64,000 bases of DNA, from positions 25,992-89,991 of the forward strand of contig MEVX01000008.1 in assembly GCA_001773135.1 (NCBI GenBank), written 5' to 3'. The DNA is from a candidate division WWE3 bacterium RIFOXYB1_FULL_43_24. Lineage in GTDB: Bacteria; Patescibacteriota; WWE3; UBA101185; UBA10185. Position numbers and translations under genes: made by a program. Under the pieces are notes generated by a model. That model saw only the letters and a program-made list of their open reading frames with translations, was not told the origin of the DNA and did not search any database. Below are positions 4,477 to 40,546 of this stretch, piece by piece (the first letter of the stretch is position 1; each line of letters begins with the position of its first letter).

Positions 4477-6630
4477 ATGCTAAATACTCCAATAAAAATT
4501 GGTGCATTATTACTTAAACTCACTAAAAACATCGGCTACTTTTTTCTCAGCATTCCCGACAGAATTTATAAGTTAATAAAAAAATTTCCTAAACTAAAGA
4601 TCCGTAAATTTCGAACTCCGAAGTTTCTGAAAAAAATCAGAAACGTACCGACGCACATACTTTCCCATACCGGAAAAGTTTTTAAAAACATACGGCTTTT
4701 TATTTTAGGTTTTGCGGCGTCGCTTCTCCTTATTTTTATTCCGTATGTCGTTCAATCGTGGTTTAAAGAACTACCGAATCCCGAAATGCTGACTGTTGCT
4801 CAGAAATACGGCCCCACACAAATTTTGGATAGAAACGGAGTTTTACTCTACGAAATATATTCTGATAAAAAATATGAACCTGTAAAACTTGACCGTATAT
4901 CGGAAGATGCTGTAAACGCGACAATTGCTGTTGAGGATTCTCTTTTTTACATACATAGAGGATTGAGGCCCGACAGTATAATAAGAGCTTTCAGAAAAAC
5001 ATTTGTGGATGGAGAAAAACAAGGTGGATCTACTATAACTCAACAGCTCGTGAAAAACGTACTTTTAACCCCCGAAAGAACTTTCTCAAGAAAACTAAAG
5101 GAAGCTGTCCTGTCCCTGATGGTGGAAGCAACGTACTCCAAACAACAAATTCTTGAAATGTATTTAAACAACATTGCTTACGGCGGTAACGCGTGGGGAA
5201 TTCAGTCAGCGGCCCAAAAATATTTTGCCAAAAATGCGTGGGAATTAAATCTGGCTGAGTCCGCAATGTTAGCAGGACTCCCCTCATCGCCTTCGCTTTA
5301 CTCTCCTTTGAACGACATGGGGGTTGCAAAAGAACGCCAGAAATATGTTTTGGACCGGATGGTCTCGTTAGGATATATCAATAGCGACGAGGCTAATGCA
5401 GCTCTGGAGCAAGAATTGAATATTGTTCCGCAAAAAGATTTTATAGGGGCGCCCCACTTTGTGAACTATGTCAGGAAAGTTCTGGAAGATATGTACGGCA
5501 GCAATTTTGTTAACCGCGGTGGTCTGAGGGTTACCACGACTTTGGATTATGGTCTTCAGCAAAAAGCCGAAGCTATAGTGTTTGACGAAGTACAAAAGGG
5601 AGGTAAATACGGTTTCTCAAACGGAGCGGCCGTAGTTCTGGATGTTAAAAATGCCGAGATATTAACTTATGTGGGATCTTACGATTACTTCGCACCGGGA
5701 TGGGGCGCTTTCGACGTTGTAACTTCTTACAGACAACCCGGGTCTTCGATAAAACCCGTGACGTACTCTTTAGCTTTGGCCGATACCTACACACCGGCGA
5801 CGATTATAAAAGACTCCCCTGTTGTATATAAATTCGAAGGATCCGAACCATATAGACCTGTTAACTACGATGGAAAGTACCACGGAAACGTTACTTTAAG
5901 GGCTGCTTTGGCTAATTCCTACAATATTCCAGCCGTTAAAGTTGCAAAAGCGGTTGGACCGGACAATATTGTTTCTTTGGGAAAGGACATGGGATTAACA
6001 AATTGGAAAGTCGATGGCTCCTACGGACTGTCCGTAACTCTCGGAGGAAAAGAAGTCAGACTAATTGATCTTGCCAATGTTTACACGACTTTAGCCAGAA
6101 AAGGATCTTATGCCGAACTGTCCCCTATTATTTCCATACGGGACGGCAGGGGATATGAAATATATTCGAAAAAGCAGGTTTATCCGCGGCAGGTCATTTC
6201 AGAAGAGGTGTCCTATTTAATGTGGAGTATTTTATCGGATAGTCAGGCACGTCTTCCGGCCTTTGGAACGCGTAACTTTCTTACTGTTGAGGGCAAACAA
6301 ATTGCGGCAAAAACCGGCACAACGGATTTGATAAAGGACAATTGGACCTTTGGTTTTACACCGAGCTACACAGTAGGAGTGTGGGTTGGGAACAACGATA
6401 ACAAGCCGATGAATAAATACATGGCTTCCGGATTAACAGGGGCTGCGCCAATTTGGAACAGGATAATGTCGGAGGTGCTGGCAGGAAAAACCAACGAGGT
6501 TTTTGACATGCCACTAGGCGTGTTTGTTAAAAAAGAAGAGGGTTGCAACAGGAGCGAGGTGTTCATAAAGGGATCGAATGTTCCGAAGAGTTTGTGTCCG
6601 GCTACGGAGAGGGCGGAGAAGGCGGACTAA
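4477..6630 (+). CDS. Class A penicillin-binding protein (GT51 transglycosylase plus transpeptidase), N-terminal membrane anchor
   Basis: GT51 motifs (AVEDSLFYIHRGL, GGSTITQQL). Transpeptidase motifs SSIKP (SxxK), SYN (SxN) and KTGTT (KTG). The true start may lie downstream of 4477. Confidence 0.85.
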   Translation: MLNTPIKIGALLLKLTKNIGYFFLSIPDRIYKLIKKFPKLKIRKFRTPKFLKKIRNVPTHILSHTGKVFKNIRLFILGFAASLLLIFIPYVVQSWFKELPNPEMLTVAQKYGPTQILDRNGVLLYEIYSDKKYEPVKLDRISEDAVNATIAVEDSLFYIHRGLRPDSIIRAFRKTFVDGEKQGGSTITQQLVKNVLLTPERTFSRKLKEAVLSLMVEATYSKQQILEMYLNNIAYGGNAWGIQSAAQKYFAKNAWELNLAESAMLAGLPSSPSLYSPLNDMGVAKERQKYVLDRMVSLGYINSDEANAALEQELNIVPQKDFIGAPHFVNYVRKVLEDMYGSNFVNRGGLRVTTTLDYGLQQKAEAIVFDEVQKGGKYGFSNGAAVVLDVKNAEILTYVGSYDYFAPGWGAFDVVTSYRQPGSSIKPVTYSLALADTYTPATIIKDSPVVYKFEGSEPYRPVNYDGKYHGNVTLRAALANSYNIPAVKVAKAVGPDNIVSLGKDMGLTNWKVDGSYGLSVTLGGKEVRLIDLANVYTTLARKGSYAELSPIISIRDGRGYEIYSKKQVYPRQVISEEVSYLMWSILSDSQARLPAFGTRNFLTVEGKQIAAKTGTTDLIKDNWTFGFTPSYTVGVWVGNNDNKPMNKYMASGLTGAAPIWNRIMSEVLAGKTNEVFDMPLGVFVKKEEGCNRSEVFIKGSNVPKSLCPATERAEKAD

Positions 6631-6667
6631 GTATCTTCACAAACCCGAACTTTTACCGTAAAATCAT

Positions 6668-30661: not shown

Positions 30662-30737
30662 GGGTCCGTGGCTCAGTGGTTAGAGCGCTCGGTTCACATC
30701 CGAGAGGTCCCTGGTTCGATCCCAGGCGGGCCCACCA
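30662..30737 (+). tRNA. tRNA-Val (anticodon CAC), CCA encoded
   Basis: Manual cloverleaf. Acceptor GGGTCCG/CGGGCCC, D-stem GCTC/GAGC, anticodon stem CTCGG/CCGAG, loop TTCACAT, T-arm CCTGG-TTCGATC-CCAGG. Confidence 0.9.
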
Positions 30738-30857
30738 TTTATCAAACTTGTGTACTTGATTGGTTGTATTCTAATACCCCGCTCACTTGAAATTATTTAT
30801 TATTGACTATAGAAAATATTTAGCAAAGAATTATTAGATAGTAAAAAAGTAGTACTC

Positions 30858-30975
30858 ATTTTGGAGAGTACTCCAAAAAGTAGCATCATTCTGGAGAGTA
30901 CTCCAAAAAGTAGCATCATTCTGGAGAGTACTCCAAAAAGTAGCATCATTCTGGAGAGTACTCCAAAAAGTAAAA
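30858..30975. repeat. About 3.9 perfect tandem copies of a 30-bp unit (ATTCTGGAGAGTACTCCAAAAAGTAGCATC), each containing the palindrome GAGTACTC (GGAG-AGTA-CTCC)
   Basis: Read directly. The array ends 1 bp before the ATG at 30977. A degenerate partial copy (AAAAAGTAGTACTCATTTTGGAGAGTACTCC) precedes it. Confidence 0.85.
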
Positions 30976-39639: not shown

Positions 39640-39954
39640 TCACTCTAAAAGTTTTTTCCCTTCTTCCACAGAGATAATTTCTTCGTGAGTTGTCAATTGT
39701 TCAAAACCGAGGTAATAACAAACGAAGGCGACTTCCTCGTTTTTATAATAAGCGCGGTAGATTTTCAATGTTGCTACTTTGTCTTGAAACTCCACCTCCC
39801 TGACTCCCAGGGGCTCCTGGTCAATAAACAATGTCCCCACAGGTATTTGTTTATAGAACGTGACTGCTTTAAGATTTCCGCGTGCACTTTTTTGGAAGTG
39901 TTTGATCGTGCAAACTTGTGTTACCATGCGGTACGTGCCATTAGTGTTGTTCAT
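39640..39954 (-). CDS. Hypothetical protein (104 aa) lying between tRNA genes
   Basis: ORF only. No motif recognised. Confidence 0.35.
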   Translation of the reverse strand: MNNTNGTYRMVTQVCTIKHFQKSARGNLKAVTFYKQIPVGTLFIDQEPLGVREVEFQDKVATLKIYRAYYKNEEVAFVCYYLGFEQLTTHEEIISVEEGKKLLE

Positions 39955-40180
39955 TTTCTCCCTCTCTTTATGCAGTTCGAATTAGTGGGGTTATCGGTTT
40001 TGCTCTAGCGCGTCTATATAAATTTATCTCTCCTTCAATCAGATTTTTTGCAGTATATCACAGAATATAACTGCGTTCTTTTAGCCCGACACGTGCAAAA
40101 AAAAAACACTTAACCGCGCGAATTGTATTGTAGGTTTGGAATATTGTTGGAAAGGCGGGGTGGATTGAATTTCAATCATT

Positions 40181-40420
40181 TGGAGCGGGTGACGGGATTC
40201 GGTCACCGGTTCGTGTCTGCTGACACGCCCGTCGACCCCGCCTCGCTCACCTACGTTCGCTGCGGCATTCTCATCCCGTCAGACTAAAAAGCTTGTCAGG
40301 AGATAAACTCCCGCCAACCTTTTTGGAGCGGGTGACGGGATTCGGTCACCGGTTCGTGTCTGCTGACACGCCCGTCGACCCCGCCTCACTCACCTTCGTT
40401 CGCTGCGGCATTCTCATCCC
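40181..40420 (-). repeat. Two tandem 97-bp GC-rich repeats (40181-40277 and 40324-40420; period 143 bp; 2 mismatches). Each ends on the minus strand with the last 21 nt of tRNA-Gly (CGAATCCCGTCACCCGCTCCA).
   Basis: Read directly. The copies lie immediately 3' of the intact tRNA-Gly on the minus strand. Each unit has internal hairpins (GGTGAC/GTCACC, GTGTC-AGCA-GACAC). Confidence 0.8.
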
Positions 40421-40471
40421 TTACACCCTATAAATTTGCCCACCAACCCTGCGGGCTGTTGGTCAAATTTC

Positions 40472-40546
40472 TGGAGCGGGTGACGGGATTCGAACCCGCG
40501 ACCTTTTCCTTGGGAAGGAAACGCCATACCACTAGGCCACACCCGC
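40472..40546 (-). tRNA. tRNA-Gly (anticodon CCC), CCA encoded
   Basis: Reverse complement folds as GCGGGTG-TG-GCC..GGC-G-TTTCC-TTCCCAA-GGAAA-AGGTC-GCGGG-TTCGAAT-CCCGT-CACCCGC-T-CCA. Confidence 0.9.

Follow-up and report, generated by a model that had tools for sequence, protein, structure and literature searches.

What the two GC-rich repeats behind the tRNA-Gly(CCC) gene of the candidate division WWE3 bacterium RIFOXYB1_FULL_43_24 are, and why each of them ends exactly as the tRNA itself does, is the question raised by the 64,000-nucleotide stretch of contig MEVX01000008.1 (positions 25,992 to 89,991) that we analyzed and that is called the window below. A preliminary description, made from the letters of this DNA, had offered two answers: the repeats were either attachment-site scars left by integration and excision at the tRNA gene or a small structured RNA that had borrowed a tRNA 3' end. 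We find that the repeats, hereafter units, are members of a widespread family of folded elements of about 100 nucleotides (nt) of candidate phyla radiation (CPR) bacteria, and that they are real, conserved and structured, so that they are not inert scars. As to the molecule on which selection acts, we lean, with slightly less than even confidence, towards RNA, i.e., towards a structured module with a tRNA-identical 3' end.

The locus lies on the minus strand. The tRNA-Gly(CCC) gene (40472-40546; found by ARAGORN and, with 71.3 bits, by the Rfam tRNA model) is followed, directly after its CCA, by a 51-nt hairpin spacer (type i; 40421-40471; -18.7 kcal/mol in RNAfold), then by unit 1 (40324-40423), then, directly after the CCA of unit 1, by a 46-nt hairpin spacer (type ii; 40278-40323; -17.1 kcal/mol), which has the terminator-like make-up of an A-tract, a stem and a U-tract, and finally by unit 2 (40181-40280). 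The two units are the only matches in the window to the covariance model described below (cmsearch: 109.2 bits and E=4e-30 for unit 1, a full match; 106 bits and E=4e-29 for unit 2) and the only two matches to the 76-nt non-tRNA pattern, for which none is expected in shuffles. The basic geometry given by the preliminary description, two units of about 97 bp after tRNA-Gly with two mismatches, a period of 143 and the 3' 21 nt of the tRNA at their ends, was borne out by ARAGORN, Rfam and a repeat search, the last returning 99-nt copies at 40179-40277 and 40322-40420 that are 98% identical and spaced by 143. The last 21 nt of the tRNA (C56 to A76), CGAATCCCGTCACCCGCTCCA, are copied at the end of each unit, and the repeat search found this 3' end, as 21-23 nt, at three places: within the tRNA gene and at the ends of the two units. 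The two differences between the units fall in the loop of hairpin A and in a pair that is G-U in one and G-C in the other. The high GC content was also correctly noted (0.63-0.66 in the units versus about 0.41 for the window), as was the fact that the units are not tRNAs: ARAGORN reports just the four true tRNAs of the window and calls no tRNA or tmRNA in the units, and Rfam at E<=10 places nothing on them. The interval of about 46 bp between the copies was right in length, but it is not a plain spacer, since the segments between tRNA and unit and between units are stable hairpins (-17 to -19 kcal/mol).

To what extent are these units peculiar to the window? Other WWE3 genomes were retrieved by PolX-based synteny, and loci compared with the window are labeled by L-numbers. 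A two-part motif conserved between the window and L024, GAGAATGCCG-N(12-26)-GAGGCGGGGTC, matched more than 119 metagenome contigs among the matches listed, and a covariance model (alignment A1, model R1) built from 27 short units detected 109 copies in 100 loci. Neither the two-part motif nor an earlier scan gave a match in the viral contigs of IMG/VR, and blastn found no match to the unit in phage records. An exact 55-mer of the unit has no match in representative genomes; the nearest species carries a 1-nt deletion within that stretch. The search for homologs that the preliminary description had proposed thus found copies at many other tRNA genes in related organisms. A profile search combined with ARAGORN placed the units 0-68 nt downstream of tRNAs, always in the same orientation, and the tRNAs served represent 14 amino acids (Gly, Pro, Ala, Gln, Lys, Arg, Ile, Ser, His, Leu, Asp, Val, Tyr and Trp) and about 27 anticodons. 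One Ala-type locus belongs, judging from its Obg protein (62-64% identical to proteins of 'Patescibacteria group bacterium' and 57% to a WWE3 protein), to a different Patescibacteria lineage.

Each unit follows its own tRNA. Its last 21 nt are the last 21 nt of the tRNA upstream of it, even where the T loop is not of the CGA type but reads CAACU, CAAAU or CAAGU, and the block of identity is exactly 21 nt long, from C56 to A76, in 48 of 51 distinct tRNA-unit pairs, its edge reading GTT|C in the tRNA and GAC|C in the unit in the same 48 pairs. At L100, tRNA genes that encode no CCA are followed by tails that lack CCA, and identity extends up to 11 nt past the discriminator, which means that the copy was made from the gene and not from the mature tRNA; a retro-copy of mature tRNA is excluded on the same grounds. 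A tRNA pseudogene, a piece of tmRNA and a split tRNA were likewise considered and rejected, given the negative ARAGORN and Rfam results and by the spacer, which has no similarity to the tRNA 5' part and is not derived from it. Two loci deserve separate mention. Around 1370-1720 of L100 about 330 extra nt behind the anticodon region split a tRNA gene (GCCGAGGTAGCTCAGTGGTAGAGCACATCGCTGAA...GATGGTGTCGACAGTTCGATTCTGTCCCTCGGCA), which is followed by its own unit; this is probably an intron-containing tRNA. L015 (2170-2480) carries a unit of the L008 type behind genes for an ABC transporter and MacB rather than LysM and tRNA-Gly, with no tRNA detected upstream, and its context reflects either a rearrangement or a chimeric assembly.

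The 76 nt that precede the tail are conserved as well. RNAalifold gives a three-way junction common to all copies, in which the 5' strand of helix P1 (NNGGAY) is followed by the joining segment J1/2 (GAGAAU), by P2 (GCC/GGC), which closes hairpin A, by J2/3 (GG), and by P3 (GGUCG/UGACC), which closes a variable hairpin B of 25-90 nt; after P3 come two junction nucleotides that are T-loop positions 57-58 and then the 3' strand of P1, which is made of tRNA positions 59-66, while the acceptor strand and NCCA are single-stranded in the predicted fold. In unit 1 these parts lie at 40416-40423 (P1 5' strand), 40410-40415 (J1/2), 40383-40409 (P2 and hairpin A), 40381-40382 (J2/3), 40344-40380 (P3 and hairpin B), 40324-40344 (tail copy) and 40334-40341 (P1 3' strand), and in unit 2 at 40273-40280, 40267-40272, 40240-40266, 40238-40239, 40201-40237, 40181-40201 and 40191-40198, respectively, all on the minus strand. 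Hairpin A is either a GC stem or a series of alternating Watson-Crick steps and tandem G-A pairs, and a conserved GNA/GA internal loop always precedes it. Among 89 distinct model-aligned sequences, 94.9% of paired cells are occupied by pairs versus 75.9% in shuffles, and double-sided changes number 388 versus 117; these figures are somewhat inflated because the alignment was fitted to the model, but the margin is large. When the partners are slid, pairing falls to 33-43%. Variant units (GAAAGU/GUC...GAC) replace GCC/GGC of P2 with GUC/GAC, a compensatory change. The covariation check that the preliminary description had suggested therefore gave a strong signal in the three-way junction. One of the two hairpins named there, GTGTC-AGCA-GACAC, proved to be the tip of a conserved, covarying helix; the other, GGTGAC/GTCACC, finds no support in the family: GGUGAC supplies the 3' strand of P3, and the partner of AUCCCGUC is the 5' end of the unit. 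P3 has at its base a G-U pair that hardly ever varies (87 of 89 sequences), so the strand that folds is the tRNA-sense strand.

The fold matches no catalogued RNA family. A cmscan of the window and eight loci against Rfam 15 at permissive E-values placed no family on the units, including LOOT, hammerhead, twister, pistol, hatchet and HEARO. The sole Rfam match seen, BSnc120 at L127, is an artefact aligned to the downstream terminator. A hammerhead or another known ribozyme was considered for the similar topology and rejected, as the core motifs and any Rfam match are missing.

Helix P1 links the scaffold to the tail, and thus to the tRNA that the unit follows. Its 5' strand fits the unit's own tail (317 of 376 cells paired) better than tails shuffled among units (247 +/- 6), and it is mostly the Watson-Crick complement of nt 59-66, unlike the wobble-containing T-stem strand of the tRNA. 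The idea that it is simply a copy of the T-stem 5' strand (tRNA positions 48-55) was rejected, since it pairs with 59-60 and has Watson-Crick pairs in place of wobble pairs. L068 combines a Pro-type P1 strand with a Gly tail. P1 may be needed for function; by our own inference, it may also stop the duplicated T-stem strand from disturbing the folding of the upstream tRNA.

The number of units at a locus is polymorphic. In the species of the window, L001, L004, L005 and L025 have two units, and L002/L006 and L003 have one; in the one-unit alleles the same downstream flank stands directly after the unit, so that the alleles differ by a clean 143-nt indel of one spacer and one unit, which in the window corresponds to spacer ii and unit 2 (40181-40323, minus strand; the frame is arbitrary within the repeat). 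Among sister species, L008/L020 has one unit, in which the 5' G is replaced by U and one C of the tail is deleted, turning a G-C pair of P1 into U-G. L024 has a longer homologous unit, and its tail fits its own, different T loop (CGAGCCCC...). Elsewhere, L099 is a unit-to-unit deletion derivative of L088, and truncated second copies follow complete units at L035, L038 and L074. Scaffolds that sit on different tails can be 100% identical (Lys at L031 and Pro at L053; the two Arg units of L088) or 97-99% identical (Ala at L141, Arg at L120, Lys at L086 and Gln at L028).

Some units lie inside transcription units of stable RNAs. At L038, L105, L107 and L141, which represent at least four species, a unit lies between tRNA-Ala and 23S rRNA, a position that makes it part of the rRNA primary transcript; at L127 a unit runs with its CCA directly into G1 of the tRNA behind it, and the last unit is followed by a strong terminator; at L088 a unit begins 0-5 nt past a tRNA. 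Behind stand-alone tRNAs the spacer is a stable hairpin, often with A and U tracts, and many spacers carry an inner motif ATATCACC...GGTGGTAGC. At L052, L059, L065, L078, L091, L095, L102 and L120, which have different tRNAs, we see (G)ATATCACC-loop-GGTGGTAGC with a covarying outer stem and A/T tracts. The type i hairpin of the window is a member of this spacer-hairpin family and recurs with compensatory changes in L008, L024 and L137, its shape being conserved and its sequence partly so, and type ii has homologs with a covarying stem in L094 and L137. The spacer hairpin may be a second structured domain of the module and not an ordinary terminator. The units of rRNA operons have a 22-30-nt AT-rich spacer and no left-end hairpin.

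What the units are associated with in terms of genes is mostly a negative matter. All-against-all clustering of open reading frames (ORFs) revealed no protein family enriched within 4 kb of units, and a Pfam scan of 143 of the 292 ORF-cluster representatives returned housekeeping genes and two or three large serine recombinases; in these same analyses, no Cas12, TnpB or Tns-like family is enriched near the approximately 100 loci, neither an RNA-guided effector (Cas12k, TnpB, IscB) nor transposon ends were found among the neighbors, and there is no tyrosine recombinase among the commonest families. The search for integrase genes next to other copies, also proposed earlier, hence found no recombinase that is consistently nearby. 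One island could be resolved. At L112 a serine-recombinase island (152-2020 and 5900-5975, compared with 6440-6575 of L039; also found at about 1000-1095 of L086, in reverse) is inserted exactly between the CCA of tRNA-Lys and the hairpin and unit, and in the empty site, L039, hairpin and unit stand directly after the tRNA, which means that the unit is resident and that the island uses the CCA|hairpin junction. The recombinase of the L112-type island has Resolvase, Recombinase and Zn-ribbon domains, the cargo includes an ABC-2 transporter and an HD-domain protein, and the right end, ...CTTCGGGGAACNNAATGTTATCCCACCA, is conserved and common to two different organisms.

Cassettes without a recombinase lie between tRNA and unit or between two units at L094 (thymidylate kinase, ThyX and a nucleotidyltransferase), L137 (an unknown protein, then a reverse transcriptase with another unknown protein), L102 (a ClpP-like protease) and L122 (an S41 peptidase and a family 1 glycosyl hydrolase). 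At the end of every cassette stands a degenerate tRNA 3' part, after which come a hairpin and a unit. Judged by its order, tRNA|hairpin i|unit|hairpin ii|unit, the window has the L137 arrangement minus the cassettes; its repeats enclose just the 46-51-nt hairpins and the scaffold. The L137 reverse transcriptase (337 amino acids; RVT_1, E=3e-23; 5604-6638, reverse) is carried as cargo between two units and adjoins an unknown protein of 200 amino acids, whose paralog is in the neighboring cassette. WWE3 islets after tRNA-Gly (about 4380-8600 of L137, reverse; 2480-3500 of L008; L021) have a common left-end motif, GA(A/T)GTT(T/C)(G/A)AAGTTCCGA, and a right-end motif, GGTTTCCAGACTCGNC...GCTCCA; in L008 both end halves appear fused (GAAGTTCCAGACGACTCG), as in an empty site, which suggests a second cassette system nested at the tRNA-Gly locus.

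Several small proteins are encoded beside units and have no Pfam match: 104 amino acids in the window, 120 and 121 in L008 and 165 in L137. The 104-amino acid hypothetical protein of the window (39640-39954, minus strand), which matches a RIFOXYB1_FULL_43_24 protein with full identity, is encoded just downstream of unit 2 and belongs to a fast-evolving family, with just 60% identity in the sister species (L008) despite 94% PolX identity there. L008 (2983-4288) has three tandem small genes for proteins of 120, 121 and 95 amino acids, the last apparently being the homolog of the 104-amino acid protein and the 121-amino acid one seeming, by eye, to be related. Elsewhere in the window, a tandem repeat with a period of 30 nt (30844-30972, plus strand; 4.3 copies, 96% matches) lies about 110 nt past the tRNA-Val gene (30662-30737). 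Each of its repeats holds the near-palindrome GGAGAGTACTCC, and it sits just 5' of the likely ATG (30979) of a 555-amino acid ORF that was mechanically annotated from 30861; the array looks like an operator or repeat array and not like coding sequence.

Given these observations, we return to the reading in which the selected object is RNA. It is favored because the sense strand is the one that folds, with a near-invariant G-U pair and covarying hairpins of variable length, because GC content is high in an AT-rich genome, because co-orientation with the tRNA is obligatory and units are embedded in rRNA and tRNA transcription units, and because the analyses above associate no recombinase, phage or plasmid signal with them. 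The proposal of a structured RNA with a tRNA 3' end, made in the preliminary description, finds support in structure, orientation and location, and the RNA itself is a prediction from the genomic sequence and the modeled fold. The module consists of a hairpin right after the tRNA CCA, which is usually present, of the three-way-junction scaffold, whose 5' strand clamps nt 59-66 of the tail copy in P1, and of the exact copy of the last 21 nt of the tRNA, with its acceptor strand and CCA left single-stranded. Such an RNA would be made within tRNA or rRNA precursors, would accumulate with a tRNA-like end at CCA and may act by mimicking the tRNA 3' end or competing with it. In the DNA, the 21-nt direct repeats formed by the tRNA end and the unit tails would drive duplication, loss and homogenization of modules by recombination, giving rise to the one- and two-unit alleles, and each tail|hairpin junction would recreate the tRNA end|hairpin site and offer an extra landing place for recombinase-borne islands and cassettes; units would consequently come to bound accessory-gene islets.

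There are also observations that weigh against RNA as the selected object. The element is dispensable at tRNA-Gly, since L021 and L023 have no unit there and in the complete RAAC2 genome (L019) nothing is left but the hairpin and 22 nt from the start of the unit. Decayed tails (L034, L044, L136) and truncated copies are common, L119 being another such locus, as would be expected of selfish DNA, and the 97-100% identity of scaffolds on different tRNA tails points to recent spread between loci, in the course of which new tRNA loci may have been colonized. Of the 64 spacers, 19 are terminator-like, and a terminator-like hairpin between tRNA and unit would limit read-through. P1 has no fewer A-C mismatches (21) than G-U pairs (14), so this helix taken alone has no strand asymmetry. 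The exact T-loop boundary (U55|C56) is, moreover, typical of tRNA-targeting integrases, which, as Williams is said to have described in 2002, yield just such a boundary.

RNAs with tRNA-like 3' ends are known from RNA replicons and retroplasmids, namely from the tRNA-like structures (TLS) of plant viruses and from the Neurospora Mauriceville plasmid. The units resemble TLS and the Mauriceville plasmid in that a non-tRNA RNA would end in T-arm and acceptor sequence plus CCA. They differ in that their 3' end is an exact copy of the neighboring tRNA, in that they have no acceptor helix, because the 5' partner is missing, and in that they are chromosomal and only about 100 nt long.

The main rival to the RNA reading, which we consider unlikely but by no means negligible, is that the fold acts as single-stranded DNA. 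Each unit would then serve a non-autonomous integrative module as its structured attachment site, similar to attC or the CTX attP. Beside the crossover, P1 would restore the T-stem half-site of the tRNA gene in duplex form, and the insertion of modules and cassettes at tRNA 3' ends would be the work of a recombinase or HUH enzyme whose gene lies elsewhere. The exact boundary at U55|C56 in the 48 pairs, tails without CCA where the gene has none, the Watson-Crick character of the P1 5' strand, the polymorphic copy number with tandem, truncated and often decayed copies, the recombinase-less cassettes between units and the near-identical scaffolds on different tRNAs are all in line with such a site. 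What speaks against such a site is that about 100 loci have no associated recombinase or transposase in the clustering and the Pfam scan described above, that the one resolved recombinase island uses the CCA|hairpin junction and not the unit, that units are absent from viral contigs and phage records and are seamlessly embedded in rRNA and tRNA operons, and that a module of 143-148 bp would be very small for double-strand excision. Integron attC and CTX phage attP sites are similar to the units in that structure is kept over sequence, one strand folds, cassettes (promoter-containing or promoterless) are arranged in arrays separated by sites, and the recombinase is, or for the units would be, encoded elsewhere; however, the units have no R and L boxes, no GTTRRRY core and no integron integrase nearby, and they fold into a three-way junction, not a bulged hairpin, and contain a copied tRNA end. 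A further candidate class, the IS200/IS605-derived miniature elements (PATE), has a subterminal hairpin near each end, inserts 3' of a fixed tetra- or pentanucleotide and occurs together with a TnpA (Y1) gene in the genome; the units of rRNA operons have, as noted, no hairpin at the left end.

A bolder version of the RNA reading would have one 'tRNA-tail' RNA per tRNA gene, with an active scaffold programmed through P1 to hold the tail that, e.g., cleaves or directs cleavage at the scaffold/tail junction, or that presents the tail to replace, or to act as a decoy of, the 3' half of tRNAs that come under attack in the T loop or at the acceptor end, the whole spreading without a recombinase of its own; we regard this as improbable, though worth keeping in mind. 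We give still less credence to the units being guide RNAs that would use their 3' 21 nt to bring an RNA-guided nuclease or transposase to tRNA genes, in the style of the delocalized CRISPR RNAs (crRNAs) of CRISPR-associated transposons or of TnpB omega RNAs. CRISPR-associated transposons do home beside tRNA genes via delocalized crRNAs (PMC11656645), which provides a precedent, and the units share with these crRNAs and with omega RNAs a scaffold with, on its 3' side, a spacer-like segment matching a tRNA gene and a copy that lacks the dinucleotide flanking the target: the TT that precedes C56 in the tRNA would be similar to a protospacer-adjacent motif (PAM), and the AC at the same place in the unit would avoid self-targeting. 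But the clustering and the Pfam scan show no Cas12k, TnpB or Tns genes near the units and no transposon ends, several units can occur on a contig at different tRNAs, their distance from the tRNA is variable, and the stretch of the would-be guide next to the PAM is tied up in P1.

It is very improbable, in our view, that the unit is a self-cleaving or processing-directing RNA that frees a 21-nt tRNA 3' fragment or a replacement 3' part and so serves as a tRNA decoy or repair device. By analogy, the open P1 and the conserved junction nucleotides would correspond to a type I hammerhead-like topology, in which the scaffold/tail junction is the usual place of cleavage, and each unit is specific to one tRNA. 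The core sequences are unlike those of all known ribozymes, no hammerhead, twister, pistol or hatchet matched in Rfam, and a nicked tRNA can be religated without spare parts.

The weakest explanation, hardly tenable any longer, takes the units for inert attL/attR scars that elements left at the tRNA gene as they integrated and excised in series. Although the direct repeats of the tRNA 3' segment and the islands at tRNA-Gly in relatives agree with it, scars would retain neither a three-way junction, whose compensatory changes here span about 27 tRNA species in many organisms, nor a G-U pair that is almost invariant, nor 63-66% GC against a genomic 41%. Part of the original idea has survived: the tails are DNA-level copies of the tRNA gene from C56 to the 3' end, relatives carry cassettes, and one tRNA end has a serine-recombinase island, which nevertheless entered between the tRNA and a hairpin and unit that were already in place. 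The T-loop class of tRNA-targeting elements has similar direct repeats from T loop to 3' end, adjoining accessory genes and repeat arrays. The DNA that adjoins the repeat differs, since here it is a conserved, covarying junction common to tRNAs of many kinds with no associated integrase, many units enclose a hairpin only, and units reside inside rRNA and tRNA operons; we found the direct repeat of the tRNA 3' end and not an integrase-bounded element free of structural constraint.

The element is apparently undescribed: the literature searched (full text, motif strings included) contained no description of it, although another name is possible, and Rfam 15, the viral contigs of IMG/VR and phage records contain no match. 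Its absence from Rfam makes the family currently invisible to annotation. If it is an RNA, it would be a new and abundant class of structured RNAs tied one-to-one to tRNAs, even inside rRNA operons, in a huge and poorly understood bacterial radiation, with implications for the maturation, decoying or repair of tRNAs where genomes are reduced. As a folded DNA site, it would represent a recombinase-independent or trans-mobilized cassette system that would explain the gain and loss of accessory genes at tRNA loci of streamlined CPR genomes, with a cargo that includes reverse transcriptase, nucleotidyltransferase and thymidylate genes as well as proteases. In either case, the rule by which the pairing of P1 tracks the tRNA is a programmable recognition principle.

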